From assembly GCF_014192285.1 (NCBI RefSeq), contig NZ_JACHXQ010000010.1, positions 106,098 to 130,097 of the forward strand: a stretch of DNA of 24,000 nucleotides, written 5' to 3'. The notes beneath the pieces were generated by a model. It was not told the DNA's origin. It saw only the letters and a program-made list of their open reading frames with translations, and ran no database searches. Both the position numbers and the translations under genes were made by a program. Shown here piece by piece: positions 295 to 22,899 of this stretch. Numbering within the stretch: position 1 is the stretch's first letter; each line of letters begins with the position of its first letter. The stretch comes from Halomonas fontilapidosi (GTDB lineage Bacteria > Pseudomonadota > Gammaproteobacteria > Pseudomonadales > Halomonadaceae).

Positions 295-306
295 TCGATC
301 TCCTCT

Positions 307-350
307 GTCGATGTACTCGACCTCTTGCGTCGATTTACTCGACCTCTTCA
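307..350. repeat. 22-bp tandem direct duplication spanning the glk stop codon
   Basis: Copy 1 is gtcgatgtactcgacctcttgc (307..328). Copy 2 is gtcgatttactcgacctcttca (329..350). They are identical at 19 of 22 positions. Copy 2 carries tta, the TAA stop of glk on the minus strand, where copy 1 has gta. Confidence 0.85.
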
Positions 351-1303: not shown

Positions 1304-3190
<1,887 letters not shown>

Positions 3191-3282
3191 GGCTCACCTC
3201 GAAATCGAGTGTCGGTTGTCTTGTAAACTTACCAATAAAATGTCCGGTTATCCGGCCATGCTACCCGTTATTCGGCAATTTT

Positions 3283-3297
3283 TGTAGTTTTATTACC
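3283..3297. promoter_or_regulatory. Possible HexR-type operator in the edd promoter region
   Basis: TGTAGTTTTATTACC matches the gammaproteobacterial HexR palindrome as I recall it (TGTAAT-www-ATTACA) at 11 of 15 positions. It lies in the AT-rich 132-bp gap upstream of edd. This is a by-eye match only. Confidence 0.25.
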
Positions 3298-3322
3298 GCC
3301 AATATGTTGCCGAAAGACCGGC

Positions 3323-4717
3323 TCAGAGACCCAGCAGGCGCAGCCACCAGCGACGCCAGGGCGGGTCGAGCAGCCCCGCGGCGTTATGACGTGCCTGCAG
3401 GAAGACGCTGCGCTGGTGAGTGAAGCGCAGGAAACCGGCCTCGCCGTGATAGGCCCCCATGCCGCTCTCGCCGATGCCGCCGAAGGGCAGGGCAGGCACC
3501 GTGTAGTGCCAGAGGGTGTCATTGAAGACCACACCCCCGGAGCGGGTCTGCTCCAGCAGTCGCCAGCGGCGGCCCGGGTCATCGGTAAAGGCGTAGAGCG
3601 CCAGCGGGCTCGGGCCGTCGGCGACCTTGGCCAGGGCAGCATCGAAGTCGCGCACGCCGATCACCGGCAGCCAGGGGCCGAAGACCTCCTCCTGCATGAT
3701 CGCCAGGTTGGCGGTGGGGTCGATCACCAGCGTAGGCGGCAGCTTGGCACCGTGGCCGAGTTCCAGGCGCTCGCCGAGCTCGATCACCCGGCAGCCATGG
3801 TCGCGCGCCTCGTCGAGCAGTCGCTCGAGGCGGCTGCGGGTGGCGTCGCCGGGCACCGCCGAGTAGTCATCGCTGGCCGTGCCGTGGGGATAGAAGTCCT
3901 TTACCACCCCGCGGATCGCCTCGATGAAGGCCGGCAGGCGTGCCGCATCGATCAGCACGTGGTCCGGCGCGATGCAGGTCCGGCCGGCATTGAGCCACTT
4001 GCCGAAGGCGATGCGCCGGGCGGCATGCGTCAGGTCGGCATCATCGGCGACGATGGCCGGGGCCTTGCCGCCGAGCTCCAGGGTGACGGGCGTGAGGTTG
4101 GCGGCCGCGGCCTGGGCCACCTTGCGGCCCACCCGGGGGCTGCCGGTGAACAGCAGGTGGTCGAAGGACAGGGCGGCGAAGGCTCTGCCGATGTCGGCAT
4201 CCCCGGTGACCACCTGCAGTTCCTCGGGCGCGAAATAGCGTTCGACCAGTTCAGCCAGCAGGGCGCTGGTGGTGGGGGTCTGTTCGCTGGGTTTGATCAT
4301 CACCCGGTTGCCGGCGGCCAGCGCATCCAGCGCCGGCATCAACGCCAGGCTCCAGGGGTAGTTGGCCGGGGCGATGATGCCCACGACCCCCAGCGGCTGG
4401 CGGTAGAGGCGCGCGCGGCCCGGCTTCAGCCGCCAGGGCACGGCGGCACGGCGGGGCGTCATCCAGCGCTTGAGGTGGCGGCGGGTGTGGCGGATGGCCA
4501 GCAGCAGCGGCACGACCTCCGCCAGACGTGTCTCGGCCTCGGCGCGGTGGCCGACGTCCTGGTGGATCGCCTGGGCGATCTCCTCGCGGTGATGGCGAGT
4601 CATGCGCGCCAGGCGGGCAAGGCGGTCGCGACGGATCGCCGCCGAGGGGAGAGGCTCGGCAGCGAAGGCCTGGCGCTGCCGGTCAAGGCGCGCCTGCAGG
4701 GCGCGGGCATCGGTCAT
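3323..4717 (-). CDS. NAD(P)-dependent aldehyde dehydrogenase, ALDH3 / coniferyl-aldehyde dehydrogenase-like
   Basis: ALDH motifs are present: ELGGKAP, the catalytic-Cys region GRTCIAPDHVLI, and EEVFGP. I place the start at Met18 of the track ORF (ATG at 4717..4715) because a GGAGA Shine-Dalgarno lies 5 nt upstream and MTDARALQARLDRQRQAF is a typical N-terminus for this subfamily. Confidence 0.85.
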   Translation of the reverse strand: MTDARALQARLDRQRQAFAAEPLPSAAIRRDRLARLARMTRHHREEIAQAIHQDVGHRAEAETRLAEVVPLLLAIRHTRRHLKRWMTPRRAAVPWRLKPGRARLYRQPLGVVGIIAPANYPWSLALMPALDALAAGNRVMIKPSEQTPTTSALLAELVERYFAPEELQVVTGDADIGRAFAALSFDHLLFTGSPRVGRKVAQAAAANLTPVTLELGGKAPAIVADDADLTHAARRIAFGKWLNAGRTCIAPDHVLIDAARLPAFIEAIRGVVKDFYPHGTASDDYSAVPGDATRSRLERLLDEARDHGCRVIELGERLELGHGAKLPPTLVIDPTANLAIMQEEVFGPWLPVIGVRDFDAALAKVADGPSPLALYAFTDDPGRRWRLLEQTRSGGVVFNDTLWHYTVPALPFGGIGESGMGAYHGEAGFLRFTHQRSVFLQARHNAAGLLDPPWRRWWLRLLGL

Positions 4718-4899
4718 GCACGTCTCCGTGTGTCGATGAGGATGGAAGGGGACTCGGGCACTGGGCACAATGTAGGCCTTCTGCCAACGGCTTGTCAGCT
4801 ATCGGAGCCGTCGCATAGGTGGCAGGGTTCGGGGCTGAGCCGTCGGCAGGCTGCCCCGGCGCCTCTCGCCTTGAATACCGGCATTTCCCAGGAGTCGCC

Positions 4900-6033
4900 A
4901 TGACCTCGCTCGTGCTGCACGAACTGCCCGCCATCGAGGCGGTACCCGCCGCGGCCTGGAATGCCCTGGTCGGCGACGATCATCCCTTTCTGCGCCATGA
5001 GTTCCTGCATGCCCTGGAAGCCAGCGGCGCGGTGAGTCCCGCTACCGGCTGGGTACCGCGCCACCTGACCCTGTGGCAGGACGCGGCGCTGGTCGGCATC
5101 CTGCCGCATTACCACAAGCACCACTCTTTCGGCGAATACGTCTTCGACTGGGGCTGGGCCGATGCCTGGGAGCGCGCGGGAGGTCGCTACTATCCCAAAG
5201 GGCTCTCGGCGATCCCCTTCACCCCGGCACCCGGGCCGCGGCTGGCCCTGGCCCCACATATCGATCCGCTGGCGGCGCGCCGAGTGCTGGCCGAGGCCTG
5301 GGAGGCCAGTGCGCTGTCGAGCTGGCACCTGCTGTTCGCCGAACCGGCCGAGGTCGATGCCTGGCAGGCGGCCTGTCCGTTGCTGCTGGCCCGCCACGGC
5401 GTGCAGTTTCAGTGGCACGACGCCGGCTTTGGCGACTTCGAGGGTTTTCTGGCCGCCCTGACCGCGAAGCGGCGCAAGGCAATTCGCCGCGAGCGGCGCC
5501 TGGTGGCCGAGCAGAGGCTGACCCTGCATCGCCTGGAGGGCGAGGCCATCGACGCCGCGGCGATGGCGCACTTCTTCCGCTGCTACGAGATCACCTACCT
5601 CGAGCGCGGCCGCCATGGCTACCTTGGCCTCGACTTCTTCGAGCGCCTGCGCCGAACCCTGCCCGAGTCACTGCTGCTGATCCAGGCCCGTCGCGACGGC
5701 GTTCCGGTGGCCGCCGCGCTCTGTCTGCAGGGGGCACGCACCCTCTATGGGCGTTACTGGGGCAGCGAGGTACTGGCCGACTGCCTGCACTTCGAGGCCT
5801 GCTACTACCAAGGCATCGAGCACTGCCTGGCGCGCGGCCTGACGCTCTTCGATCCCGGGACCCAGGGCGAACACAAGCTCGCGCGGGGGTTCGCGCCACG
5901 CCGGCTCACCTCGCTGCACCATATCGCCGACCCGCGGCTTCGCGATGCCGTGGCGCGCTTCTGTGCCGAGGAGCGTACCCACGTCGAAGCCTACTGTCGG
6001 GCAGCCGAGGCGGCGCTGCCCTACCGGAGTTGA
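4900..6033 (+). CDS. Conserved DUF482 / FemAB-like GNAT-fold protein
   Basis: The start is set at the ATG at 4900, which has a CAGGAG Shine-Dalgarno about 6 nt upstream. The N-terminal signature W-NALVGDDHPFLRHEFLHALEASGAV resembles the conserved (N/D)PFL-HEFL-ALE-SG motif of that family as I recall it. The family assignment was not verified by any search. Confidence 0.55.
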   Translation: MTSLVLHELPAIEAVPAAAWNALVGDDHPFLRHEFLHALEASGAVSPATGWVPRHLTLWQDAALVGILPHYHKHHSFGEYVFDWGWADAWERAGGRYYPKGLSAIPFTPAPGPRLALAPHIDPLAARRVLAEAWEASALSSWHLLFAEPAEVDAWQAACPLLLARHGVQFQWHDAGFGDFEGFLAALTAKRRKAIRRERRLVAEQRLTLHRLEGEAIDAAAMAHFFRCYEITYLERGRHGYLGLDFFERLRRTLPESLLLIQARRDGVPVAAALCLQGARTLYGRYWGSEVLADCLHFEACYYQGIEHCLARGLTLFDPGTQGEHKLARGFAPRRLTSLHHIADPRLRDAVARFCAEERTHVEAYCRAAEAALPYRS

Positions 6034-6260
6034 CCGAGTGACGACTGCTACACTCTCCCTGAGGAATGTAATCAGTATGTATCTCATACTTCAGCACCAA
6101 ATCGGTGACTTCGTTCGCTCGATACATTCAAGTCAACGATCAGCGAGTGGCAGTGATCGTCCTGAAAGGTCTCGTTCCCGGCTCCAGGTTACCGTTGTCG
6201 GGGAACTGGTCGTCTGCAGGTTGAATTTATCTCGCTGCCGCAGGGATGAGGTGAGTCGCC

Positions 6261-7640
6261 ATGGAAATGAAGCAACGTTGCTGGCTGGTGGCGGAGGATC
6301 CGGCAGCAGCAGAGCAGTTGGAAGCCAAGATCGACTCGATCGGCTGGAAAGTAAGGCGACTATCTCCGCCTCTTTTCAGCTCTCGCCTGGAGGAGGACAG
6401 AGAGTGCGGGGTCGGACTGGTTCTGCTCGATGGCATGGCGGATGCCCGGCTAGCTCAGCTGGAGGCAATGCTGCTCGAGAGCCACTGCCCCTGGATGGTG
6501 GTCGCGGCAGACGATGCGGTCGAGGACGCCAGCAGGCGACAACTGGTCGCCACGCTGTGTCATGCCGTGGTGGCACCGACCATCGACCTCGCCGAACTTG
6601 ACTGCTTGATGCGACATGCGTTGCCCCTATCACTGCTTCGGAGTGGAGACAGCAGGCCCTGTCACAGGGAGGCTGCCCTATCAGCTGACATGGCAGAATA
6701 TGAAATGGTGGGGACCAGCCCCGTGATGCGGTCCCTTTTCCAGGTCATCCGCAAGGTGGCAGCGGTGGAGGCACCGATCCTGATAGGCGGTGAATCCGGG
6801 ACAGGCAAGGAACTGACCGCCCAGGCGATTCATGAGCGTTCACCGCGGGCGTCATCGTCGTTTCATGCCATCAATTGCGGGGCCTTGCCGGACCACCTGA
6901 TCCAATCTGAGCTCTTCGGGCACGAGAAGGGGGCCTTCACCGGAGCGGTCCATCGCAAGATCGGCCGGATCGAGGCAGCCGACGGTGGCACCCTCTTCCT
7001 TGACGAGATCGGTGATCTGCCGCTGGAACTTCAGGTCAACCTGCTGCGCTTTCTCGAGACACAGAGCATCCAGCGCGTGGGCGGCCTGGAAGAGATCAGA
7101 GTCGATGTGCGCATCATCGCCGCCACCCATGTGGACCTCGAGGCTGCCATCGAGGAGGGGCGATTCCGCGAGGACCTCTACCATCGGTTGAATGTGCTGC
7201 ATGTCAGGGTGCCGGCACTCCGTGAACACCCTGACGATATCGAGGTGATGGCGCGTTACTTCTTCGACCGCTTTTCAGGAGAGAAGAGCGCCCGACTCAA
7301 GGGGTTTTCCCGCGAGGCGCTGGTGGTCATGCGCCAGTATGCCTGGCCCGGGAATATCCGTGAGCTGATCAACCGCATCCGGCGTGCCATGGTCATGTGC
7401 GAGAAACGCCTTATCCAGCCCAGGGATCTGGGCATCGAGCGTCGCAAGATCGTGCGCCATTCGATGACGCTCGATCAGGCCAGGGAGAGGGCAGAGCGAG
7501 AGGCATTGGTTGCCGCGCTGGAACGCAACGAGAGTAGGGTCCGTCCGGCGGCCCGGGAGTTGGGAGTCTCGCATGTCACCATCTATCGGCTGATGGAGAA
7601 GCACGATATTTCCCATCCGGGAGTAGAAGCCGAGGGCTGA
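6261..7640 (+). CDS. Sigma-54-dependent transcriptional activator (NtrC-family bacterial enhancer-binding protein) with a degenerate N-terminal receiver-like domain
   Basis: AAA+ motifs are present: Walker A GESGTGKE, the sigma-54 contact loop GAFTGA (6930..6947), Walker B LFLDEIG, RIIAAT and [12 protein letters not shown]-terminal Fis-type helix-turn-helix is present ([19 protein letters not shown]). A GAGGTGAG Shine-Dalgarno lies about 7 nt upstream of the start. Confidence 0.9.
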
Positions 7641-7691
7641 TCGGCTGATCGTATTATCTTTCCACCCTCCTGTACTGAGGATCTGCATGTT

Positions 7692-7720
7692 GCCTGATGG
7701 GCCTTCCATCAGGCTTTTTT
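7692..7720 (+). terminator. Rho-independent terminator of the activator gene
   Basis: There is a perfect 9-bp stem, GCCTGATGG (7692..7700) pairing with CCATCAGGC (7706..7714), and a 5-nt loop. It is followed by TTTTTT (7715..7720) and lies 52 nt after the stop codon. Confidence 0.8.
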
Positions 7721-7758
7721 ATGGCTGGTGCCAGGATCCAGTTCTGTGGGAAGAAGGA

Positions 7759-7781
7759 GGCGGTTCATGCATGAAACGGCC
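7759..7781. promoter_or_regulatory. Candidate upstream activator sequence (imperfect palindrome) for the sigma-54 activator
   Basis: GGCGGTTCATG|CATGAAACGGCC has 9 of 11 arm positions complementary around a CATG centre. The centre is about 166 bp upstream of the -24 GG, a typical enhancer distance. The functional assignment is inference. Confidence 0.3.
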
Positions 7782-7934
7782 TTCTCGAATTAAGCTAATT
7801 GTCTGATTTTGCAACATTCCTGACCTGAGATCCGTCTCCTGAGCGGGGAGGGAGGGAGGAGGGTTACACCTGCTTAACGGGGCCTGCCGAGGAGCTCTTC
7901 GCATTTAATCCAATAAAAACAGTGACTTAAATTT

Positions 7935-7950
7935 TGGCATGGCGTTTGCT
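7935..7950 (+). promoter_or_regulatory. Sigma-54 (RpoN) -24/-12 promoter of the fap-like operon
   Basis: TGGCATGGCGTTTGCT compared with the consensus TGGCACG-N4-TTGCW has one mismatch (C to T at position 6) and exact GG-to-GC spacing. It ends 46 nt upstream of the first operon ATG (7997). It lies downstream of a terminator and next to a sigma-54 activator gene. Confidence 0.8.
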
Positions 7951-7996
7951 CCCATCAGGGTAAGAACCGCATACGAGATGTTGAGCAGGTGTCGGC

Positions 7997-8431
7997 ATGA
8001 AGGTTAAGACTCAGATACAGCGACCCATGAGCAATCAGTGGATCACGGCAGCGATGCGCGAGTCTGCCAGCTACGGCCTTTGGCTAGCCGTGATGGTCGG
8101 TCTTCTCGGCGCCATGGTGGCCGTAGATACACGGCAGGATGCCCAGGCAGCAGAGGCGACGCTTGTCGAGGCCTCTTCCCCCGCGCTGAAGCCTGTAGAG
8201 GCATCCGATGCTGTGCGAATGGAGCCTCTCGATGACCCTTCGCTCCAGGCCGTTCGTGGTCGCCATGTCGATGCCGGGCACCTTGAAGGCAAGAGGAGCA
8301 ATTCGGTCATCCTCTGGGACGAGCGCGGGAAGGATACCCCGGCGGCTGGCAGCAAGAGTACCGTCAAGTCTCGCGCCACGGGAATCGGCAACCATCAGGA
8401 AGCCACCGTTACCACCCGCGGGGGGAGATAG
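7997..8431 (+). CDS. fapA: FapA-like small exported protein, first gene of the Fap-type amyloid operon (putative chaperone/modulator)
   Basis: The ORF is 144 aa, with an AGGTG Shine-Dalgarno 5 nt upstream. A hydrophobic segment YGLWLAVMVGLLGAMVAV is followed by AQA|AEA, which could be a signal peptide with a long n-region or a signal anchor. The rest is low-complexity and looks disordered. The assignment rests mainly on position and size within a fapABCDEF-ordered operon. Met11 or Met20 are alternative starts. Confidence 0.55.
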   Translation: MKVKTQIQRPMSNQWITAAMRESASYGLWLAVMVGLLGAMVAVDTRQDAQAAEATLVEASSPALKPVEASDAVRMEPLDDPSLQAVRGRHVDAGHLEGKRSNSVILWDERGKDTPAAGSKSTVKSRATGIGNHQEATVTTRGGR

Positions 8432-8433
8432 TC

Positions 8434-9156
8434 ATGGGCCTCATGAAACTGCTGGACAAAGACGTGAGAAAGGGCTCAGCACCGATGGCGATGCGGTACG
8501 GCAAGAAGGCCGGCAAGTTGGGCAGCCACACTCGAACATCAGGCGTGAGGGTCGCCACCAAACTGATGGCAGTTGCCTCTCTGTTGGCTGCCGGCATGCC
8601 ACTGGCCATGGCACAGCAAGAGTTGACGACGCGCAACAACAGCGCCCTCGACAGCAGCGCCCTCAGCAGGGTCACGGGCATCAGCACCACCAACCTGGCC
8701 GCTGGCGAGGGCAACTTGCAAAGCAACAGTGGTGCCATCTCCATCGGTGATGTCGCCACCACGGCCAACGCCCTACAGCAACGGTCACGCATCGAAGACT
8801 CACTCGTCGACCGGCAGGACAGCGTCAGTATTGAGGGCCGCGCCTATCGACATTCCGAAGGGTGGATGTCGATCAATCAGGCAGCGGGCCTGGGGAATGT
8901 GCAGAGCAACGCCTTCGAGGTGGCTCTGGGCATATCGGCCAGCAACCTGAGTGACAGCAGTCTTCAGCAGGTAATGGCCGATCAGCAGGGGCTGAATGGG
9001 ACCGAAGGTGATGATTCGGGAAAGTCTTCACGGAGGATCGAGGTCGACGAGACCACCTTCGAGGGCACCCGAGGTGTCATCCAGGTTAACCAGTCAGCCG
9101 GCACGGGAAACGCTACTCGCAACAGCTTCCGCATGAACATGTCGCTGGGAGAGTAG
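8434..9156 (+). CDS. fapB: FapB-like amyloid subunit (putative nucleator / minor fibre subunit) with three imperfect repeats
   Basis: A GGGGGAGA Shine-Dalgarno precedes the ATG at 8434, which lies 2 nt after the fapA-like stop. A signal peptide ends ...LLAAGMPLAMA|QQE. Three repeats share the core xG-x4-N-x-(A/S)AGxGNxxxN. Alternative starts at 8485 or 8491 would shorten an unusually long n-region of about 40 aa. The protein has no Cys. Confidence 0.75.
   Translation: MGLMKLLDKDVRKGSAPMAMRYGKKAGKLGSHTRTSGVRVATKLMAVASLLAAGMPLAMAQQELTTRNNSALDSSALSRVTGISTTNLAAGEGNLQSNSGAISIGDVATTANALQQRSRIEDSLVDRQDSVSIEGRAYRHSEGWMSINQAAGLGNVQSNAFEVALGISASNLSDSSLQQVMADQQGLNGTEGDDSGKSSRRIEVDETTFEGTRGVIQVNQSAGTGNATRNSFRMNMSLGE
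8653..8748 (+). repeat. FapB-like repeat R1 (coding)
   Basis: SSALSRVTGISTTNLAAGEGNLQSNSGAISIG. Confidence 0.7.
8836..8931 (+). repeat. FapB-like repeat R2 (coding)
   Basis: GRAYRHSEGWMSINQAAGLGNVQSNAFEVALG. Confidence 0.7.
9046..9144 (+). repeat. FapB-like repeat R3 (coding)
   Basis: DETTFEGTRGVIQVNQSAGTGNATRNSFRMNMS. Confidence 0.7.
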
Positions 9157-9208
9157 CGCAATCGCAACGCAGGAATCCGAACGATTCGGTTCATCCAGGA
9201 GGAAAGCC

Positions 9209-10261
9209 ATGAAGACGTTCCACAAGACTCCGCTTGCCATTGCCGTCGCCACACTCATGGTAGCGCCCTATGCGCTGGCTCAGGGAGACGGCAACAAGTT
9301 CGATACCAACAGCACCATCGATTCAGAACTCGATAACTCGATCGATGTCGATATCGACCATGCAACCAACAGCGACAGCGACTTCTATACCAGCGTGTTC
9401 ACGTTGAGCGTCGCGGATAACTATGCCGGTGCCACGGTCGACAGCAAGCAGCTGATCGATGGTAACTCTGTTACCAATGATGGCTCGGAGAACGACGCAA
9501 CGATGGGCGGTGACTCCTTGTCCGGCTCCTCGGGCAACATCGGTGCCAACGTGGCCGCCGGCGACAGCAACAGCCAGGCCAACGATGCGGCACTGGCCTC
9601 GTCGGACGCCGCGGAGGTATTCGGCCAGGCCGAAGCCTATTCCGCCCAGTCGGCCTCCGGCAATAGGGTCAGCAATATCGGCAGCTCCAATTCGGCCCAG
9701 CTGGGTGGCAACTCGCTGCAGGGCGCTTCCGGCAATATTGCGGCCAACGTTGCCGCCGGTGTCGGGAACGCCCAGCAGAACTCGCTGGCAGTGACGGAAA
9801 ACAGCGTCTCCGGCGATGCCAATGCCACCTCGGCTGGCGTCCAGTCAACCTATGGCAATGCCACCACCAACAGCCCAGTGAGCCGTGAGACGGGTGGCAC
9901 CGCCGAGGTTGATTATGACGTGACGCTGGATGCCAGTGGCCTGGTCATGCAGCAGCAGGAGCCCGTTGTGGTGCCGCGTCACGATGCTGATGCGCATTCT
10001 GAAGGCGAGACAACCGAAGGGCACAACGATCTTGCCGGCCTGGCCTTCCAAGGCGTCGAAGGGTCTAAGCTCGAGATGACCGTCAGCGGTGAGGTCCCCA
10101 CAACGGGGCCGACCTATACCGACCATCGCAACGACGCCTCCCTGGACGGCAGCGCCCTCAGTGGGGCCAGCGGTAACGTCGGTGCCAACGTGGCGGCAGG
10201 GACCAACAACCTGCAGCGCAACTCTCTCTCCATCGCCTCGTCAAGTGCCGGCGACAGCTGA
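9209..10261 (+). CDS. fapC: FapC-like major functional-amyloid subunit with three imperfect ~35-aa repeats and two linkers
   Basis: An AGGAGGA Shine-Dalgarno lies 5 nt upstream. The Sec signal peptide is MKTFHKTPLAIAVATLMVAPYALA|QG. The three repeats share the core SGN(I/V)(G/A)ANVAAGxxNxQxN, the same motif I recall from the Pseudomonas FapC repeats (SGN[IV]G[AV]N[IV]AAGxGNQQxN). Linker 1 is short and linker 2 is long, as in FapC. Confidence 0.85.
   Translation: MKTFHKTPLAIAVATLMVAPYALAQGDGNKFDTNSTIDSELDNSIDVDIDHATNSDSDFYTSVFTLSVADNYAGATVDSKQLIDGNSVTNDGSENDATMGGDSLSGSSGNIGANVAAGDSNSQANDAALASSDAAEVFGQAEAYSAQSASGNRVSNIGSSNSAQLGGNSLQGASGNIAANVAAGVGNAQQNSLAVTENSVSGDANATSAGVQSTYGNATTNSPVSRETGGTAEVDYDVTLDASGLVMQQQEPVVVPRHDADAHSEGETTEGHNDLAGLAFQGVEGSKLEMTVSGEVPTTGPTYTDHRNDASLDGSALSGASGNVGANVAAGTNNLQRNSLSIASSSAGDS
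9497..9601 (+). repeat. FapC-like repeat R1 (coding)
   Basis: ATMGGDSLSGSSGNIGANVAAGDSNSQANDAALAS. Confidence 0.8.
9695..9799 (+). repeat. FapC-like repeat R2 (coding)
   Basis: AQLGGNSLQGASGNIAANVAAGVGNAQQNSLAVTE. Confidence 0.8.
10136..10240 (+). repeat. FapC-like repeat R3 (coding)
   Basis: ASLDGSALSGASGNVGANVAAGTNNLQRNSLSIAS. Confidence 0.8.
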
Positions 10262-10306
10262 TCCTGCTCGCCAGCGCTTGGCAGCACGGCGATGCTGCAA
10301 CCCAAT

Positions 10307-10336
10307 CCCGGCCTGCTTCGGCAGGCCGGGTGTTCT
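10307..10336 (+). terminator. Intra-operon stem-loop after fapC-like (partial terminator / mRNA 3'-end stabiliser)
   Basis: A perfect 10-bp GC-rich stem, CCCGGCCTGC (10307..10316) pairing with GCAGGCCGGG (10321..10330), closes on a TTCG (UUCG) tetraloop and is followed by TGTTCT. It lies in the 107-bp fapC-fapD gap. A second 6-bp hairpin, GCAGCA-N6-TGCTGC, sits at 10281..10298. Confidence 0.5.
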
Positions 10337-10368
10337 ACCCCAGACGAGAGTGAGTCGAGGAGTCGCTC

Positions 10369-11073
10369 ATGCCAACCCGCCATCGATTCGCGCTAGGGGC
10401 CGTACTCCTGGGGCTCTTGCTCCCCTTTCTCGATGCTCAGGCAGCCAGTATGCGTCTGGGCAATGTCATGTCCGGCACGATGATCCATAAGGATGTCCAG
10501 TCCATCCGTGAACGTCGCTTCGAGAATATCGTCGAGCAGAAGACGGACTTCTCCTGTGGCGCGGCCTCGTTGGCCACCATTTTCCGGTATGCCTACCAGA
10601 AGCCCTCCGTCACGGAGGAGAGTGTCCTGGCTGGCATGCTCGAGGTCGCGGACCCCGAGCTGGTTCGTCAGCAAGGGTTTTCGCTGCTGGACCTGAAGCA
10701 CTACGTGGAGGAACTGGGCTATCGCGGCCGGGGGTACGAGGTGGCACCGCAAACCCTGGATGAGGTGTCGATCCCGGTCATCGTGCTGCTGGACCTGGAG
10801 GGCTACAAGCACTTCGTGGTGATGAAGAAGGCTAGCGGTGATCGTGTCTACGTGGGGGATCCGGCCCTTGGCAATCGCGTCATGGATCGCGAAGCGTTCA
10901 TGGACGCCTGGAACAACATCATTTTTGCCGTCGTCGGCGAGGGATTCGATCCGGGCACGGTACTGCTGGATCCACGGCAGCCGTTGACGGCACATCGCAT
11001 GCAGGATGTCTTCGCCCCGGTACCGAAGCAGAAGCTGCTGGATTTCGGTTTTCGTCATGCCGACCTCTTCTGA
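10369..11073 (+). CDS. fapD: FapD-like periplasmic cysteine peptidase, family C39 (stand-alone, Sec-exported)
   Basis: A GAGGAG Shine-Dalgarno precedes the start. The signal peptide is MPTRHRFALGAVLLGLLLPFLDAQA|AS. The C39 catalytic signature is intact: Gln57 and Cys63 in EQKTDFSCGAASLATI (Cys codon tgt at 10555..10557), and His148 and Asp164 in YKHFVVMKKASGDRVYVGDPALG. Confidence 0.85.
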   Translation: MPTRHRFALGAVLLGLLLPFLDAQAASMRLGNVMSGTMIHKDVQSIRERRFENIVEQKTDFSCGAASLATIFRYAYQKPSVTEESVLAGMLEVADPELVRQQGFSLLDLKHYVEELGYRGRGYEVAPQTLDEVSIPVIVLLDLEGYKHFVVMKKASGDRVYVGDPALGNRVMDREAFMDAWNNIIFAVVGEGFDPGTVLLDPRQPLTAHRMQDVFAPVPKQKLLDFGFRHADLF

Positions 11074-11120
11074 CCCCAGCGGGCCTGCAGGGGCTATCAG
11101 CCGAACAGGGGGTGACGATC

Positions 11121-11921
11121 ATGTTCAAGAAAGCGTGGCAACGTAATTGCAAGAAGGCAGGCCTCACGGCCTTGCTGGCGGTTTCCACGACGGGATTGGC
11201 GGCACCGGCCGAGGCCGCCACCTCGGACTTTGATGCCTTTACATCGAGCCGCGAGCTGAGTGATGCCGAGCTCGGACAGCAACGAGGACGGTTCGTCGAC
11301 AAGGGCAGCCTGATGTTCTTCGGGGTGCAGGTAACCAGCGAGTGGCGGACGTCCCACGGCGAGCACCTGGTGGCCCAGGGGGACTTGAGGGGGGATCTCA
11401 GCGGCGCAACACCCCGCGTGAGTTTTCAGCCGCGGATCACCGCAGTAGCGGCGGATTCCCTGGCCTCGGATGGCCTTGCGGGCAATGGTGCCACCGTCGT
11501 GGATGCCGGTACCGGCAACGCCGGCGGCGTGGTGCAGACCATCCAGGCGGCCGGGGATTTCAACGCCGCCGCCAACGACCTGCAGATCGATGTGCTCGAC
11601 GCCGCCGATGCCTCAGCTCCCCAGGGAGGGGGCGCTGCGAGCGGAAGCGCCGTCGAGCAACGGCTGGCATCCGGCACGCGAGTCTCGGTCAGCAATGGAC
11701 CCCAGGGCATGGGGGTTTCACTGGATGTCCCGGGCATGGGTCGCGTCAAGCAAGCCGTCGTTCCGAGTCAGGGGCTCCGTCAGTCGATCCAGTTGAGCAG
11801 TGACTTCCAGCAGGTGCGCAACCTTACGCGACTACAGCTCTATATGGGGGAGCGCGGTGCGAAGGCCGATGCGCCAGGCGTGCGCCGTGCCGTCCGCTCG
11901 GCGCGTCCCCTGGCTCCTTGA
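11121..11921 (+). CDS. fapE: FapE-like secreted protein (putative minor fibre component)
   Basis: The track ORF starts at the GTG at 11112. I prefer the ATG at 11121, which has a CAGGGGG Shine-Dalgarno about 8 nt upstream. The signal peptide is MFKKAWQRNCKKAGLTALLAVSTTGLAAPAEA|AT. The protein contains one segment resembling an amyloid repeat (see findings). The assignment rests on operon position, size and that segment. Confidence 0.6.
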   Translation: MFKKAWQRNCKKAGLTALLAVSTTGLAAPAEAATSDFDAFTSSRELSDAELGQQRGRFVDKGSLMFFGVQVTSEWRTSHGEHLVAQGDLRGDLSGATPRVSFQPRITAVAADSLASDGLAGNGATVVDAGTGNAGGVVQTIQAAGDFNAAANDLQIDVLDAADASAPQGGGAASGSAVEQRLASGTRVSVSNGPQGMGVSLDVPGMGRVKQAVVPSQGLRQSIQLSSDFQQVRNLTRLQLYMGERGAKADAPGVRRAVRSARPLAP

Positions 11922-12082
11922 GGAACCCTGAATCCGTGGATGGCTGGTCTACACACCGTCCGGGGTGAACGATAGGGTAGGAGAGTGCAGGCCACTGGTC
12001 GTGCCGGAAGAGGGGCGCGGCCAGTGTCGCTTGGCAGGAAGCTTCGGACCAATGATTTGATGAGCACACAGCGAGGTCATTC

Positions 12083-13141
12083 ATGCGGGATACGGCATCA
12101 CTCTTTTACGTTTCCATCGTGGCAGCATCGCTTGGAGCGGCATCGACGGCTCACGCCCAGATGGCCGATGACGAGGAAGAGGTGGTTCGCGAAGCCAGGC
12201 CCAGCAAGAGTGTCGAGAACGTCCTTCGCGAGGAGCATACCCTCTTCTCCGATCGGCTGACTATCGAGCCGGGCATCAACTACTCCTATTCCGATCGCTC
12301 TCAACTGGCCCTGCGGGGCTTTCTGGCTCTTGACGCCATCTTTCTGGGGGAGATCAGTGTCGATGCGGTCGAAAGCCACATCACGACTTTCGACCTGAAT
12401 ACCCGTTACGGCTTGACCGACCGGCTGGAACTCGGGGTGAACCTCCCCTTCGTTTACCGAACCAGTACGTACCAATCCATAGGTGATGATTTCTCTACCG
12501 AGAAGAACAGTGAGACATCCGTGGATGAAGCGGACCTCGGTGATATCAGCCTGTCACTCTCTTATCGGCTATTCCAGGAAACGGAGACCCGTCCCGATCT
12601 CGTCTGGAATCTTGGCGTGCGTGCGCCAACAGGCACCGATCCTTACGGGCTTGATGTGCGTCAGGACTCCAATACCAACCTGAATGTGCCCACGGAGCTG
12701 CCAACCGGTAATGGCGTATGGGGTGTCAACACCGGGGTATCGCTCCTCAAGACGCTGGACCCGGCCATCGTCTTTGCCAATCTCGGCTATACGTATAACT
12801 TCGAGGAGAGTTTTGATGATATCTCTGCGAGCGAAGGCAACCAGCCCGGGGATGTGAAGCTGGGGGATACCATTCGCGCTGGCTTCGGGACGGCCTTTGC
12901 GCTCAACGAGAACTTCAGCCTCTCGCTTTCCTACTCTCACGAATATATCCAGCAATCTGAAACAACCCAAGGCGGTGCTACCAGCAAAGTGGTCGGCAGC
13001 GACGCCAATGTCGGGGTGCTCAACCTGGGCGGGACCTACGCACTGGATGACAGCACCTCCATCGTCACCAGCCTGGGCGTGGGCCTCACCGACGATGCCT
13101 CGGACGTCAGCCTGACCTTCCGCATGCCCTTCCAGATGTAG
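12083..13141 (+). CDS. fapF: FapF-like outer-membrane beta-barrel secretion channel (Phenol_MetA_deg / PF13557-like barrel)
   Basis: A GAGG Shine-Dalgarno lies 6 nt upstream. The signal peptide is ...SIVAASLGAASTAHA|QMA. Most of the sequence shows the alternating amphipathic pattern of beta-strands (GINYSYS, LELGVNLPFVYR, GDISLSLSYRLF, GVNTGVSLLK, FANLGYTYNF, FSLSLSYSHEY, VGVLNLGGTYAL, VTSLGVGL, VSLTFRMPF), with an aromatic residue near the C-terminus. It is the last gene of the operon, as FapF is. Confidence 0.75.
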   Translation: MRDTASLFYVSIVAASLGAASTAHAQMADDEEEVVREARPSKSVENVLREEHTLFSDRLTIEPGINYSYSDRSQLALRGFLALDAIFLGEISVDAVESHITTFDLNTRYGLTDRLELGVNLPFVYRTSTYQSIGDDFSTEKNSETSVDEADLGDISLSLSYRLFQETETRPDLVWNLGVRAPTGTDPYGLDVRQDSNTNLNVPTELPTGNGVWGVNTGVSLLKTLDPAIVFANLGYTYNFEESFDDISASEGNQPGDVKLGDTIRAGFGTAFALNENFSLSLSYSHEYIQQSETTQGGATSKVVGSDANVGVLNLGGTYALDDSTSIVTSLGVGLTDDASDVSLTFRMPFQM

Positions 13142-13172
13142 ACGCCTCGGGAATCGATTACCCTGGGCTCAG

Positions 13173-13206
13173 GCAAGCCACCAACCTTGGTGGCTTGCTT
13201 GTTTTT
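13173..13206 (+). terminator. Rho-independent terminator of the fap-like operon
   Basis: There is a perfect 12-bp inverted repeat, GCAAGCCACCAA (13173..13184) and TTGGTGGCTTGC (13187..13198), followed by TTGTTTTT. A second hairpin follows immediately: TTTTCCCC (13203..13210) pairing with GGGGAAAA (13221..13228). Confidence 0.85.
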
Positions 13207-13351
13207 CCCCGCCCCCGGTAGGGGAAAAGCCGGCAGCAGGGTTCCGCTGCGTATCGATAGTCCCTGCCATGCTTCTGCCTGGCGCCTCGCCGCCCTGCGT
13301 CACAAGATGGCATAATGCCCGCCATCGACACCCTCGTGACGGACTCCCTGC

Positions 13352-13702
13352 ATGCTCAAGTGGCTGGCCATCGTGCTCATCATCCTGCTCGCGCTGCTGC
13401 AGTACCGGCTGTGGCTCGGCGAGGGCGGCATGCGCGAGCTTGCCGAGGTACGCCAGCGGGTGGCCGTGCTGGAGGAGGAGAACCAGCCGCTGCGCGACCG
13501 CAATGCGCGCCTGGCCGCCGAGGTGGTGGATCTCAAGACCGGCCTCGATGCCATCGAGGAGCGGGCCCGCAGCGACATCGGCATGGTGCGCACCGACGAG
13601 CAGTTCTTCTGGGTGCCCGGCGTGGCGGTGGAGACCACCGGCCTCGAGGTCAATGCCGGCCTGCTGGGCATGCCGGCCCCCGGCGCGGAGACGAGGCAGT
13701 GA
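13352..13702 (+). CDS. ftsB: Cell division protein FtsB
   Basis: The ORF is 116 aa, with an N-terminal transmembrane helix and a coiled coil. LLALLQYRLWLGEGGMRELAEVRQ...LDAIEERARSDIGMVRTDEQFF parallels E. coli FtsB (WLQYSLWFGKNG...ALEERARNELSMVKPGETFY). Confidence 0.9.
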   Translation: MLKWLAIVLIILLALLQYRLWLGEGGMRELAEVRQRVAVLEEENQPLRDRNARLAAEVVDLKTGLDAIEERARSDIGMVRTDEQFFWVPGVAVETTGLEVNAGLLGMPAPGAETRQ

Positions 13703-14454
13703 GCGGCCGCCTGTGGCTTGTGGTGCCCGCCGCGGGGCAGGGGCGACGCATGGGCGCCGACCGCCCCAAGCAGTACCTGCCGCTGGCCGGCCGGCCGGTG
13801 CTGGCGTGCACCCTGGCGCGCCTCCACGAGGCCTTCCCCGAGGCCCGGCTCTGCCTCTGTCTGGACGCCGAGGATGGCCACTTCGACCCGGCCTGGGTGC
13901 CCTTCGCCGACTGGCGTCGCGCCCCCGGCGGGGCCGAGCGGGTCGACTCGGTGGTCAACGCCCTGGAGGCCATCGCCCCGGAGGCCGAAGAGGACGACCT
14001 GGTGCTGGTCCATGATGTCGCCCGGCCCTGCGTCACCGTCGACGACCTGAGGCGCCTGCTGGCGGCCATTGCCGACGACCCCGTGGGCGGGCTGCTGGCG
14101 GCCCCGGTGGCCGATACCATGAAGCGCGACGATGGCGCCGGGCGGGTGCGGGCCACCGAGTCCCGCGAGGGGCTCTGGCATGCCTATACCCCCCAGGGCT
14201 TCCGCCATGGCCTGCTGTGTCGCGCCCTGAATGATGCGCTGGCGCGGGGTGTGGCCGTCACCGACGAGGCCTCGGCGGTGGAGGCGGTAGGCCTCTCGCC
14301 GCGGCTGGTCGGCGGGCGTCGCGACAACCTTAAGATCACCCATCCCGAGGACCTGGCCCTGGCCGAACTGGTGCTGTCGGCCCAGGCGCTGGCCGCCCAG
14401 ACGTCCTCGGTGACTCACCCCGAGGCGTCCCCGCATGGGACGAACGGAGCATGA
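13699..14454 (+). CDS. ispD: 2-C-methyl-D-erythritol 4-phosphate cytidylyltransferase
   Basis: The GTG at 13699 overlaps the ftsB TGA (GTGA). The N-terminus VSGRLWLVVPAAGQGRRMGADRPKQYLPLAGRPVL carries the IspD P-loop-like signature (PAAGxGxRM...PKQY). Later motifs include VLVHDVARP and KITHPEDL. Confidence 0.9.
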   Translation: MSGRLWLVVPAAGQGRRMGADRPKQYLPLAGRPVLACTLARLHEAFPEARLCLCLDAEDGHFDPAWVPFADWRRAPGGAERVDSVVNALEAIAPEAEEDDLVLVHDVARPCVTVDDLRRLLAAIADDPVGGLLAAPVADTMKRDDGAGRVRATESREGLWHAYTPQGFRHGLLCRALNDALARGVAVTDEASAVEAVGLSPRLVGGRRDNLKITHPEDLALAELVLSAQALAAQTSSVTHPEASPHGTNGA

Positions 14455-14472
14455 AGGGAGTATGAAACGCGC

Positions 14473-14970
14473 ATGATGCGAATCGGCCACGGCTTCGATG
14501 TTCACCGCTTCGGCGAGGGCGACCACCTGATGGTCGGCGGCGTCGCCATCCCCTTCGATCGCGGCTTCATCGCCCACTCCGACGGCGACGTGCTGCTGCA
14601 TGCGGTCTGTGACGCCCTGCTGGGGGCGTGTGCCCTCGGCGACATCGGCGGCCACTTCCCCGATACCGACCCGGCCTGGGCCGGCGCCGACAGCCGTGGC
14701 TTGCTGCGCCACGTCGCCGGGCTGGTGGGCGAGGCCGGCTACCGGGTCGGCAACCTGGACGCCACGCTGATCGCCCAGGCGCCGAAGATGGCGCCCCATA
14801 TTGGCGTCATGGCCGGATATATCGCCGAGGACCTGGGCGTCGCCCGGGGCGCGGTCAACGTCAAGGCCACCACCACCGAGCGGCTCGGGTTCACCGGCCG
14901 CGGCGAAGGCATCGCCGCCGAGGCAGTGGCGCTGCTGGTGCGCCGCGACGGGGATTCGGCTTGTGAGTGA
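14473..14970 (+). CDS. ispF: 2-C-methyl-D-erythritol 2,4-cyclodiphosphate synthase
   Basis: [12 protein letters not shown]...[22 protein letters not shown]...[12 protein letters not shown] is the canonical IspF sequence. The ORF is 165 aa. The start may be the second ATG, at 14476. Confidence 0.92.
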
Positions 14971-16078
14971 GATCGGATCATCCGGCGTCCAGGATGCCAT
15001 CGACTGGCCGCCGGCCTGGCCGCGGGGGCTCGAGGAAGCATTCGGCGCACCGCCACCCGGCGACTATCGCGCCGTCCCCGAGGACTTCCGGGTCGAGGAA
15101 GCCCTCGACTTCGCCCCGGAAGGGGAGGGCGAGCACCTCTGGCTGTTCATCGAGAAGCGCGACCTGACCACCGCGATGGTCGCCCGCGAGCTGGCCCGGC
15201 TCTGCGAGGTCTCGTCGCGAGTGGTCGGCTATTCGGGCATGAAGGACCGTGTCGCCGTGACCCGCCAATGGCTCTCCGTGCAGCTGCCCGGCCGCGAGGC
15301 CCCCGAGGGCCTCGCGGCGCGACTCGCCGAGCGGGGGGTACGCGTGCTCGACCAGGCCCGCCATCCGCGCAAGCTTAAGCGTGGCGTGCACCGGGCCAAC
15401 CGCTTCCGCCTGCGGATCACCGGGGCCGCCGTTGCCGACCCGGCGCTCGAGGCGCGCTGGCAGCGTCTGTGCGACGCGGGTGTGGCCAACTATGTCGGCC
15501 CCCAGCGTTTCGGCGCGGACGGGCGCAACCTGCAGCGCGCCCGGGCCGTGCTGGCCCGCGGCTGGCGCAAGCGCGATGACCGCGAGGGCATGCTGCTCTC
15601 CGCGGCCCGCAGCTACCTGTTCAACGAGCTGCTGGCCGCCCGGGTGCGCGACCATAGCTGGACCACACCGCTGCCCGGCGAGGTGGTCATGCTCGACGGC
15701 AGCGCCAGCCAGTTCGACGTTGCGCCCGACGATGCCGCCGAGCTCGCCGGGCTCATCGAGCGGGCCCACCGCCTCGATCTGCACCCCGCCGGGGTGCTGT
15801 GGGGCATCGGCGAGTCGCGCGCCACCGGCGAGGCCCGGGCCTACGAGGCCGCCCTGGCCGCGCGCTACCCGGGCCTGTGCGGCGGGCTGGAGCGCGCCGG
15901 TGTCCGCCTGGCCCGCCGGGCACTGCGGCTGCGCCTGGGCGAGCCGCGGCTGACGCGAGGCGACGGCGAGCTCTGGCTGGCCTTCAGCCTGCCGCGGGGG
16001 GCCTTCGCCACCGCCGTGCTGCGGGAACTGATCTCTCATCCCTCACTAGGGGCCCCGTCCCCCGACAGGAGCCTATGA
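14963..16078 (+). CDS. truD: tRNA pseudouridine(13) synthase TruD
   Basis: The GTG at 14963 overlaps the ispF end by 8 nt. [39 protein letters not shown] parallels E. coli TruD ([32 protein letters not shown]). YSGMKDR contains the catalytic Asp motif. The choice of start is inferred. Confidence 0.85.
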
Positions 16079-16824
16079 TGCGTCGACTGCTGCTCTCCAA
16101 TGACGACGGGGTGCACGCCCCGGGGCTGCGCGCCCTCCACGATGCCCTGCTGCCCCATGCGCGGCTGCGCGTTGTCGCACCGGATCGCGACAAGAGCGGG
16201 GCCAGCAACTCGCTCACGCTGAGCCGGCCGCTGGCGCTCTCCTCGCTCGACAATGGCTTCTACAGCGTTGACGGTACGCCGGCGGACTGTGTCTACCTGG
16301 GGGTCAACGGCGTCTGGGACGAACGTCCCGACCTGGTGATATCGGGCATCAATCATGGCGGCAACCTCGGTGACGACGTGCTCTACTCCGGCACCGTGGC
16401 CGCGGCCATGGAGGGGCGCAACCTGGGCATGGCGGCCATCGCCATGTCGCTGGTGGGCTCGCACCATTTCGAGACCGCCGGACGGGTGGCGGCGAGCCTG
16501 GTCGGGGCAGCCGACCAGCTTTCGCTGCCGCCGCGCAGCCTGCTCAACGTCAATGTGCCGGACCTGCCGTGGAGCGAGATTCAGGGCTTTCGGGTGACCC
16601 GGCTGGGCTATCGCGGCCCGGCGGCCCGTCCCCTGGAAGTCCGCGACCCGCGCGGCCGGCTGCGCTACTGGATCGCTGCGGTGGGCGAGAATGCCGACGA
16701 CGGTCCGGACACCGACTTCGCCGCCGTGGAAGCGGGCTTTGTTTCCATCACGCCGCTGCAGACCGACCTGACACGGCATGCAGCGCGCGACGACGTGCAG
16801 GGCTGGCTGGATGCACTCACCTGA
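16075..16824 (+). CDS. surE: 5'/3'-nucleotidase SurE
   Basis: The ATG at 16075 overlaps the truD TGA (ATGA), and an ACAGGAG Shine-Dalgarno lies upstream. [21 protein letters not shown]...[25 protein letters not shown] is the canonical SurE sequence. Confidence 0.9.
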
Positions 16825-16855
16825 ACGTCTGGCAGAGCTGCTGCGCGGTGTTGGC

Positions 16856-17491: not shown

Positions 17492-17521
17492 GAGACGTCA
17501 TTTTTTGAAAGGAGTCCGCTG

Positions 17522-19682: not shown

Positions 19683-19803
19683 CCCTAAGGGTCAGCCAGT
19701 CGCCGAGGCAGGAGAAATGGGGTAACCATACAATAATAACGTCGCGCGTCGGTCGTCCGGCCTGGACTCACGACGCCTGGTCGCAACCATGGGGTAGCAA
19801 TTG

Positions 19804-20817: not shown

Positions 20818-20830
20818 GGAACCCGCCGGC

Positions 20831-21934: not shown

Positions 21935-21956
21935 TCGCCGCAGCACGGGAAGCCGC

Positions 21957-22874: not shown

Positions 22875-22899
22875 CGCCGGCTGGCCGCGATCAGGCCGG

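Follow-up and report, generated by a model that had tools for sequence, protein, structure and literature searches.

A probable FapA-less Fap functional-amyloid operon with an additional first gene and a sigma-54 promoter in Halomonas fontilapidosi

The fap genes and their probable sigma-54 control elements

We analyzed a 24,000-nucleotide stretch of Halomonas fontilapidosi DNA (contig NZ_JACHXQ010000010.1, hereafter the window), which very probably carries a FapA-less Fap functional-amyloid operon (fapBCDEF) that has one extra small gene ahead of it and is under sigma-54 control. The operon consists of six open reading frames (ORFs) on the + strand between positions 7997 and 13141, and the ORF of an adjacent sigma-54 activator (6261–7640) lies on the same strand. 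All seven were found where an earlier reading made from the letters of the window (hereafter the sequence-only reading) had placed them. Five of the six operon genes were matched in operon order by the dedicated NCBIfam models for FapB, FapC, FapD, FapE, and FapF, and solved Fap structures matched as well, so the assignment to Fap was upheld. The sequence-only reading had described a complete fapABCDEF operon, which proved wrong: the 144-amino-acid first gene product is something other than FapA, and the window contains no fapA. Because of this, and because a FapA hidden Markov model (HMM) had no match in any frame of the window, the operon layout is [first gene]-fapBCDEF. Likewise, of the claim that the locus reproduces the order and properties of the Pseudomonas operon, the order B-C-D-E-F stood, and the properties did not in the case of FapF, which has no N-terminal coiled-coil and linker. 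Read by eye, the translations of all six operon products show the parts of a signal peptide (basic n-region, hydrophobic h-region, and AxA-type site), in keeping with the export signals that had been noted. As had also been stated, no ABC transporter, CsgEFG, or usher genes were found among the window ORFs in a Pfam scan. For comparison, we assembled 80 genome loci with non-Pseudomonas fap clusters and 80 Pseudomonas-type loci from metagenomes, the latter collected with the FapF sequence of Pseudomonas sp. UK4 as the query.

The fapB gene (8434–9156, + strand) encodes the minor or nucleator amyloid subunit, a protein of at most 240 amino acids with three imperfect repeats that matched NCBIfam NF058557 over profile positions 7–186 of 190 (E 2.3e-30, 105.6 bits). 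Its start is uncertain (8434 or 8485) because the ATG at 8434 would give FapB an unusually long pre-sequence of ~60 residues. The Shine-Dalgarno sequence of fapB (GGGGGAGA, region 8415–8436) shares bases with the last codons of the first gene and with its TAG stop (8429–8431), which suggests that the two genes may be translationally coupled. The fapC gene (9209–10261, + strand) encodes the major amyloid subunit, which has 350 amino acids, three imperfect repeats, and long acidic linkers. The three-repeat core reported for this protein in the sequence-only reading is real, since the three copies can be read in the translation (SSGNIGANVAAGDSNSQAN, ASGNIAANVAAGVGNAQQN, and ASGNVGANVAAGTNNLQRN) and their G, N, and Q columns are invariant over 34 homologues. 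FapC matched NF058558 with E 3.6e-56 (191.2 bits) and the FapC chains of the cryo-electron microscopy structures 9NQD and 9U4U with E 2.5e-15. The FapC homologues P0004 and P0148–P0266 all have a precomputed match to Pfam PF27129, so newer Pfam releases already cover them; their source names are mostly 'hypothetical protein' or 'Adhesin'.

The product of fapD (10369–11073, + strand) is a stand-alone C39 cysteine peptidase of 234 amino acids that is presumably periplasmic because of its N-terminal Sec-type signal sequence. It matched NCBIfam NF058616 (E 5.1e-85) and Pfam Peptidase_C39 (7.7e-20), and has no ABC-transporter domain. Comparison with the double-glycine-motif protease 6MPZ (E 9e-8) showed that the positions Q57, C63, H148, and D164 are conserved. 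In mature numbering, C63 is Cys38, which PMC6173800 identifies as catalytic. The fibre-associated accessory protein FapE is encoded at 11112–11921 (+ strand; 269 amino acids from a GTG, or 266 from the ATG at 11121) and matched NF058559 (E 6.5e-32). Finally, fapF (12083–13141, + strand) encodes a plugged outer-membrane beta-barrel secretion channel of 352 amino acids, a naturally short form that matched NF058560 with E 6.3e-110, covering profile positions 83–418 of 420 only, and the crystal structure of UK4 FapF (5O65) with E 2.5e-79. The AlphaFold2 (AF2) model of FapF (predicted local distance difference test score, pLDDT, 75) had 5O65_B as its best Foldseek match (E 3.6e-29, template modeling (TM) score 0.92, root-mean-square deviation 2.4 A), with autotransporter and FadL barrels far behind. 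The checks proposed in the sequence-only reading, namely profile similarity of the 350-, 234-, and 352-amino-acid products to FapC, FapD, and FapF and an outer-membrane barrel fold for the last, thus came out in favor of Fap, given the NCBIfam E values above (3.6e-56, 5.1e-85, and 6.3e-110) and the predicted fold of FapF, which is that of 5O65.

Two alternative identities bear on these genes. First, the locus could be a related but different C39-peptidase and barrel export system, such as the putative FilB/FilC pilus, that exports a non-amyloid adhesin. The FilB model indeed matches FapD (1.9e-31) and the FilC model FapF (1.7e-20), UniProt calls the subunits 'Adhesin', and a paralogous set of FapD-like and FapF-like genes lies beside fap in Aidingimonas and Billgrantia. 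We nevertheless consider this highly improbable, as the peptidase scores 284.3 bits with FapD versus 109.5 with FilB, the barrel scores 367.8 bits with FapF versus 73.7 with FilC, and the canonical order of FapB, FapC, and FapE is kept, as is the three-repeat amyloid core. Second, the barrel could be an uptake channel for hydrophobic compounds of the COG4313/MetA-pathway type, unrelated to the upstream genes; FapF gives a match to Pfam Phenol_MetA_deg (7.9e-11), some of its homologues are named 'MetA-pathway of phenol degradation', and FapF is structurally similar to COG4313 channels (PMC6173800). However, FapF itself is the best match by a wide margin in both sequence and structure, the plug-helix motif and the salt-bridge residues are conserved, and the barrel gene is linked to fapBCDE in most related loci examined, which leaves this explanation next to no likelihood. 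The paralogous genes of Aidingimonas and Billgrantia (L017 1135–5175, L020, L021, L025, and L029) are located just upstream of fap and comprise a second FapD-like peptidase, a reverse-oriented FapF-like barrel, and a VpsR-type activator of their own. Their scores lie between the Fap and Fil models (131 bits for FapD versus 122 for FilB, and 149 for FapF versus 88 for FilC), and they form a paralogous C39-plus-barrel system.

The activator encoded upstream of the fap genes (6261–7640, + strand) is a BrfA/VpsR-type sigma-54 enhancer-binding protein (EBP) of 459 amino acids with a weak VpsR-like N-domain, an AAA+ domain, a lid, and a Fis-type helix-turn-helix (HTH). Pfam matches were obtained to Sigma54_activat (2.4e-70), AAA_lid_14, and HTH_8/HTH_50, and the translation contains an intact GAFTGA loop and a Walker A motif. 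Over its full length it matched the 441-amino-acid protein that occupies the BrfA position in Pseudomonas-type loci with E about 1e-113. The architecture VpsR + AAA+ + HTH was found in all nine fap-adjacent activators tested, the BrfA-position protein included, and an activator homologue lies beside fap in most of the 80 genome loci, in many genera. The ratio of nonsynonymous to synonymous substitution rates (dN/dS) of the activator was 0.15 against L001, the closest related locus (Halomonas daqiaonensis). The adjacent, dedicated activator of the sequence-only reading is thereby corroborated by domain architecture and by conservation with fap. By its Pfam architecture and position, it is a putative orthologue of BrfA. 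An intrinsic terminator behind the activator gene (7692–7714, + strand), with a 10-bp stem of 6 GC pairs followed by TTTTTTAT, makes the activator a transcription unit separate from the fap operon, which in turn ends in a terminator with a 14-bp stem of 8 GC pairs (13170–13201) and a T-run (13170–13206 in all, + strand), as strong as had been claimed.

A sigma-54 -24/-12 promoter (TGGCATGGCGTTTGCT, 7935–7950, + strand) is located 46 bp before the ATG at 7997. It reads TGGCAT-N5-TTGCT and has one mismatch to the consensus TGGCAC-N5-TTGCW. Matches with up to two mismatches are not enriched in the window as a whole (17 found, 11.2 expected). However, a match of at least 9/11 occurs upstream of fapB in 49 of 69 related loci versus 39 of 232 control windows, and the core TTGGCAY-N5-TTGC is nearly invariant in 14 Halomonas loci. 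The promoter predicted in the sequence-only reading is therefore one that is conserved together with fap, and no sigma-70-like promoter was found in 6000–13500. About 65 bp upstream of the -24 element, a TGTTAC-N6-TTAACA-like palindrome recurs by eye in 14 aligned Halomonas promoter regions; its copy in the window (GTTACACCTGCTTAAC, 7863–7878, strand not assigned; family consensus about TGTTAC-N6-TTAACA) is a candidate activator-binding site. A second, TCA-N4-TGTNAC-like element ~100 bp further upstream (about 7757–7775) is another candidate, and the A/T-rich tract between palindrome and promoter (7903–7934), which also recurs in the 14 Halomonas loci, could be an IHF site.

The co-occurrence of promoter, activator, and first gene was scored in those 61 genome loci whose upstream sequence was long enough. 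A promoter of at least 10/11 was present in 39 of 51 loci with the activator and in 0 of 10 without it (Fisher p = 7e-6, kinship ignored), and the first gene in 33 of 51 and 0 of 10, respectively (Fisher p = 1.5e-4, kinship likewise ignored). All three elements are absent from L022, L024, L026–L028, and L030 (mostly Vreelandella, plus unclassified Halomonas spp.), and from L043, L044, and L047 (Polaromonas) and L049 (an unclassified metagenome-assembled genome (MAG) with near-identical genes). Activator, promoter, and first gene thus appear to have been gained or lost as a module, and the lineages that are devoid of all three must regulate fap otherwise. In Pseudomonas fluorescens PF07, the RpoN promoter of fapA-E has been mapped by 5' rapid amplification of cDNA ends, and both fap transcription and the biofilm matrix depend on the adjacent, reverse-oriented brfA gene (1326 bp) (2022; PMC9207406). 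Our literature search found no sigma-54 control of fap beyond PF07. The joint presence of the three elements across many genera suggests that sigma-54 control of Fap is widespread and probably old, and not the peculiarity of one strain.

Several observations weigh against the Fap reading of the locus or its regulatory part. All five matches fall short of their NCBIfam equivalog cut-offs (FapB 105.6/190, FapC 191.2/195, FapD 284.3/330, FapE 110.7/250, and FapF 367.8/700 bits), including that of FapC, which comes closest (191.2 versus 195 bits); the shortfall of FapF is partly explained by its missing N-terminal domain. On these scores, the Fap proteins of the window are divergent members of their families. 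The AF2 model of FapC (pLDDT 52) is uninformative, with FapC 9U4U as its top Foldseek match at E 0.028 and a TM-score of 0.14–0.27. The VpsR domain of the activator scored 19.8 bits, under the cut-off of 23.7, and a single-sequence search with its N-terminal domain alone retrieved Halomonadaceae only, with no BrfA match. The neglect of kinship in both Fisher tests belongs on this side as well.

The first gene and the absence of fapA

The first operon gene (7997–8431, + strand) encodes a small exported protein of 144 amino acids; the public annotation begins at Met11 (coordinate 8027). It belongs to an uncharacterised family, here called VILWDE after an invariant motif that occupies residues 104–109 in the window protein (8306–8323, + strand). 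The family consensus comprises a signal sequence, a leader-like motif L-x-D-x-x-L-x-x-I-R-G-R-y-v, ~12 variable residues, the invariant [VI]ILWDE, a Gly-rich stretch, and a G-x-x-N-x-Q-x-x-x-V-T tail. In the window protein, the leader-like motif spans L78–R89 (8228–8263, + strand). No Pfam or NCBIfam match was obtained with the first-gene product, permissive thresholds included. A word-based search returned four close homologues, and an exhaustive phmmer search against 1.84 billion representatives returned 14, one of which (P0140) is a spurious repeat protein. The family is thus too divergent for pairwise methods. An HMM of the window-type first gene, by comparison, found members in 40 of the 80 genome loci and in 0 of the 80 Pseudomonas-type loci. 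The dN/dS of the gene is ~0.38. The C-terminal tail of the window protein (ATGIGNHQEATVTT, 8390–8428) resembles, by eye only, the second half of the FapB/C repeat (AAGxGNxQxNxxxI), and could let the product dock on or cap fibre subunits.

Since the gene is located upstream of fapB and encodes a small, exported protein, it might be a very diverged fapA, which would make the operon a complete fapABCDEF. Moreover, FapA is an intrinsically disordered protein of low conservation, its identity outside Pseudomonadales being 17% (PMC3792158). However, two small genes are present between promoter and fapB in L001 and also in L035 (a distant Methylophilaceae), and comparison with Pseudomonas-type loci identifies the second of the two as the true fapA. 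In L001, the first-gene family member (5337–5813) lies beside FapA (5816–6334), and the two families are adjacent in 21 loci. Our FapA HMM matched in 31 of the 80 genome loci and in 61 of the 80 Pseudomonas-type loci, and not a single ORF was matched by both this HMM and that of the first gene. Profile-profile comparison of the two families with hhalign gave a probability of 0.75%. The NCBIfam FapA models recognized the FapA of the Pseudomonas-type locus L082 (1.2e-71) and the second genes of L001 (2.5e-5) and L035 (4e-6), but never the first-gene family, and gave no match to the window protein at E up to 10. The idea that the first gene is a diverged fapA is to a large extent refuted by these comparisons, and we give it only a very slight chance. 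A six-frame search of the window with the FapA HMM also gave nothing (best E 1.2), so that fapA, present at the same locus in sister species, is missing here. Among known departures from the canonical operon, loss of FapA is the most frequent (PMC3792158 and PMC12822426).

A duplication in a related genome may be relevant to this loss. In L003 (Halomonas sp. NO4, 154–11077), fap is duplicated in tandem as [activator]-[first gene-fapBCDE]-[first gene-fapA-fapBCDEF]; only one fapF is present. The DNA identity of the window fapB-E is 80% to NO4 copy 1, 72–73% to copy 2, and 75–76% to L001, the nearest species by FapF. This suggests a duplication-deletion history that may explain the loss of fapA.

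A short FapF and a leader-like motif shared with FapE

The FapF of the window consists of a signal peptide, ~15 residues, the plug, and the barrel, with the plug helix at residues 42–51 in the AF2 model (12206–12235, + strand). The residues that gate the UK4 channel can be traced in it: E50, L54, F55, E62, R108, and R347 correspond to UK4 E98, F102, F103, E111, R157, and K401 (PMC5557850), with E50, F55, E62, and R108 being identical and L54 and R347 being conservative changes, and both PTG motifs are kept. In UK4, the substitutions E98A, F102A, R157A, and K401A abolish secretion (PMC5557850). In an alignment of 25 FapF sequences, only ~12–25 residues separate the signal peptide from the plug motif in Halomonadaceae, whereas the outgroup FapFs have a heptad-rich coiled-coil and a linker there, including that of Methylohalomonas, the barrel of which is 65–69% identical. 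The short form was present in 30 of 30 Halomonadaceae loci, and other clades have 70–140 extra residues, save three uncultured Pseudomonadales/Porticoccaceae MAGs. In these three (L065, L069, and L079), an independent short FapF (ORFs of 347–362 amino acids, no coiled-coil) is accompanied by a shortened activator of 328 amino acids.

In UK4, the coiled-coil and linker drive trimerisation and are needed for secretion, and the truncated FapF-beta (residues 83–406) inserts into the outer membrane and does not support FapC secretion (PMC5557850). By analogy, the Halomonas FapF should be inactive, because the equivalent UK4 truncation is secretion-dead, and this is a further difficulty for a secreting Fap system. 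It raises the alternative of a Fap remnant, decaying or cryptic, that no longer secretes amyloid, to which the missing fapA and the GC content of 57–65% at 6000–13200, versus 66–75% in the flanks, could be added. However, all ORFs are intact, the dN/dS values are low (0.09 for FapD and FapF, and 0.12 for FapE), the short FapF is common to all the Halomonadaceae loci examined, and it retains the gating residues and both PTG motifs. We therefore judge decay to be improbable. More generally, the dN/dS of 0.09–0.29 for FapC-F, together with the same position of the locus in at least 14 Halomonas species, is evidence for a functional locus, and the window FapF is a natural counterpart of FapF-beta that purifying selection strongly constrains. 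Since this FapF has neither periplasmic coiled-coil nor linker, opening of the plug must have another trigger. The family-wide retention of the short form would mean either that the need for the coiled-coil is specific to Pseudomonas or that something else opens the plug, and it offers a natural system for tests of channel gating. The first gene was considered as a stand-in for the missing coiled-coil and rejected as a simple explanation, because it is also present where FapF has one (for example in Amphritea, Methylotenera, and Hydrogenophilus).

Immediately behind its signal peptide, FapE carries a leader-like motif (E48–R60, ELSDAELGQQRGR, 11253–11291, + strand). The motif, [LIV]-x-D-x-E-[LM]-x-x-[LMI]-R-G-[RK]-[FY]-[VA], is present in the distinct sequences shown of a 148-member FapE alignment, Pseudomonas-type sequences included; two 5'-truncated ORFs in this alignment fall short of it. 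When 15,771 ORFs were ranked with a 16-residue HMM of the motif, essentially all of the top ranks outside FapE were taken by the first-gene family. Comparison of the first-gene family with FapE by hhalign gave a probability of 95.5% (E 1.4e-8, 72 columns), a score to which signal-peptide similarity contributes part and which is weakened as support to that extent. FapA was also considered as a carrier of the motif, as its ELSDxDFAxxSSG is similar by eye, and was rejected because FapA showed no enrichment in the motif-HMM ranking.

The motif resembles the leader of double-glycine peptides, for which the consensus is M(R/K)ELX3E(I/L)X2(I/V)XG(G/A) (PMC3140520). In FapE (ELSDAELGQQRGR) and the first-gene product (PLDDPSLQAVRGR), the hydrophobic and acidic positions and the Gly at -2 match this consensus. 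Position -1 is R or K and not G or A, and this ending in G-R/K instead of G-G/A tells against recognition by a C39 peptidase. The target of FapD was called unclear in 2017 (PMC5557850) and is only presumed in the 2025 literature, and our search found no report of FapE cleavage by FapD. For UK4 FapE, the first ~70 residues yielded no peptides (PMC5557850), which would be indirect support for leader cleavage. We propose the motif [EQ]L-x3-E[LM]-x2-[LMI]-R-G-[RK] as the likely recognition element of FapD. Because it has the same motif as FapE, the first-gene product is probably a second FapD ligand or substrate, and a role of it in modulating secretion or assembly is speculative. In either case, the shared motif provides a concrete and cheaply testable candidate for the FapD substrate.

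These elements could be combined into a single scheme, which we consider rather doubtful. The first gene would be a seventh Fap component, widespread outside Pseudomonas and tied to operons with sigma-54 promoter and activator; the leader ELx3ELx2ΦRG[RK], shared with FapE and exposed after Sec cleavage, would be the long-sought FapD recognition element; and processing or binding of this leader, and not the FapF coiled-coil, would gate the FapF plug. If true, it would explain how all Halomonadaceae secrete amyloid through a FapF that matches a secretion-dead Pseudomonas truncation.

Genomic setting, proposed mechanism, and relation to known systems

In at least 14 Halomonas species, the locus is flanked by a FemAB-like gene on one side and ftsB-ispD-ispF on the other, and no tRNAs or border repeats were found at it. 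This synteny and the lack of tRNAs and border repeats indicate that the locus is old and has been passed on vertically, its lower GC content notwithstanding; a recent genomic island, which the GC dip might suggest, was rejected on the same grounds. Downstream, the window (13352–24000) contains housekeeping genes, namely ftsB, ispD, ispF, truD, surE, pcm, a VCA0040-like membrane protein gene, nlpD (LysM + M23), and rpoS, the last ~6.6 kb downstream of the fap operon, and also genes for an alanine racemase, a lipid A acyltransferase, and a DUF2254 protein. Elsewhere, the gene order varies. Six loci, L038, L040, L059 (Methylotenera), L062, L066, and L072, have the order fapF-activator-first gene-fapA-fapBCDE, and in some genomes with rearranged loci fapF lies ~7 kb from the activator. 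An Alphaproteobacteria MAG (L033, 1143–6583) has five tandem FapC-like genes between fapB and fapD and no activator within the locus.

The sequence-only reading had presented the locus as new in two respects, which were overstated because the system and its regulation are known. It held that Fap had been characterised almost entirely in pseudomonads; Fap outside Pseudomonas was described in 2013 in Beta-, Gamma-, and Deltaproteobacteria (PMC3792158), and a 2025 screen of GTDB lists 1602 fap clusters, over 90% of them fapABCDEF or fapBCDEF (PMC12822426); Fap operons are on record in ~1600 species-level genomes. It also regarded the enhancer-binding protein as a novelty, and an adjacent sigma-54 activator of fap, BrfA, has already been published (PMC9207406). 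Its expectation of poor public annotation was correct, as the public names are 'hypothetical protein', 'Adhesin', 'C39 family peptidase', 'transporter', and 'sigma-54 dependent transcriptional regulator'. The locus is in itself ordinary, and its finding in Halomonas mainly mends this annotation. What is apparently undescribed is the first-gene family, its FapE-like leader motif, and the family-wide loss of the FapF coiled-coil, of which the literature that we searched contains no account. Likewise, the searched sections of PMC3792158 and PMC12822426 make no mention of a conserved gene upstream of fapB/fapA, of an adjacent activator, or of variation at the FapF N terminus.

By homology to the BrfA/RpoN control of PF07, the VpsR/BrfA-type activator would bind the upstream sites, open the promoter at 7935–7950 with ATP, and so bring about transcription of 7997–13141. 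The signal sequences predict that Sec carries all six products into the periplasm. As in the Pseudomonas work, the plugged FapF barrel would let unfolded FapB, FapC, and FapE through the outer membrane, and outside the cell FapB would nucleate amyloid fibres of FapC, with FapE attached. The periplasmic C39 peptidase FapD would be needed for secretion and likely recognises the double-glycine-like motif behind the FapE signal peptide; the first-gene product, with the same motif, would probably be its second ligand or substrate and might modulate secretion or assembly. The proposed pathway would depart from the Pseudomonas model in having no FapA chaperone and in opening the FapF plug in some other way.

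Compared with the fapABCDEF operon of Pseudomonas (UK4, PAO1, and P. fluorescens), the Halomonas locus is alike in the order B-C-D-E-F, the three imperfect repeats in each of FapB and FapC, the stand-alone, signal-bearing C39 peptidase FapD, the N-terminal motif of FapE, and the plugged FapF with the same gating residues and PTG motifs. It differs in that it lacks fapA and has an additional first gene of the VILWDE family (found in 0 of the 80 Pseudomonas-type loci), in that FapF has no coiled-coil and linker, in the longer FapC with its acidic linkers, and in scores under the NCBIfam cut-offs. For genes B to F it fits the FapA-less fapBCDEF operons described in PMC3792158 and PMC12822426.

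The activator is similar to BrfA of PF07 in being fap-adjacent, in its VpsR + sigma-54 AAA+ + Fis-HTH architecture, and in its pairing with a -24/-12 promoter before the first operon gene. Unlike BrfA, which is encoded downstream and in reverse, it is encoded upstream in the same orientation as the operon. It has 459 instead of 441 amino acids and an N-terminal domain too diverged for pairwise detection, where the comparator is the BrfA-position protein of the Pseudomonas-type metagenome loci. VpsR of Vibrio cholerae, the namesake of PF20161, shares with it the N-terminal domain family and the EBP layout, and is a regulator of a biofilm matrix. VpsR responds to cyclic di-GMP and acts with sigma-70 despite its EBP ancestry. 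In contrast, the Halomonas activator keeps the GAFTGA loop and adjoins a sigma-54 promoter.

Two further systems share parts of this design. The pairs of double-glycine leaders and C39 domains of peptidase-containing ABC transporters (6MPZ) resemble the Halomonas locus in the catalytic positions of FapD and in the FapE/first-gene motif, which fits their consensus save for the last position. However, FapD stands free of any ABC transporter and has a signal sequence of its own, and the motif stands behind a Sec signal peptide and ends in G-R/K. Curli (csgBAC-csgDEFG) are likewise built from a Sec-exported, unfolded major subunit and a nucleator by means of a dedicated outer-membrane channel and extracellular nucleation-precipitation. 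Their sequences and folds are unrelated to those of Fap, the Halomonas locus has no CsgG, CsgE, or CsgF, and curli are regulated via CsgD and not by sigma-54.

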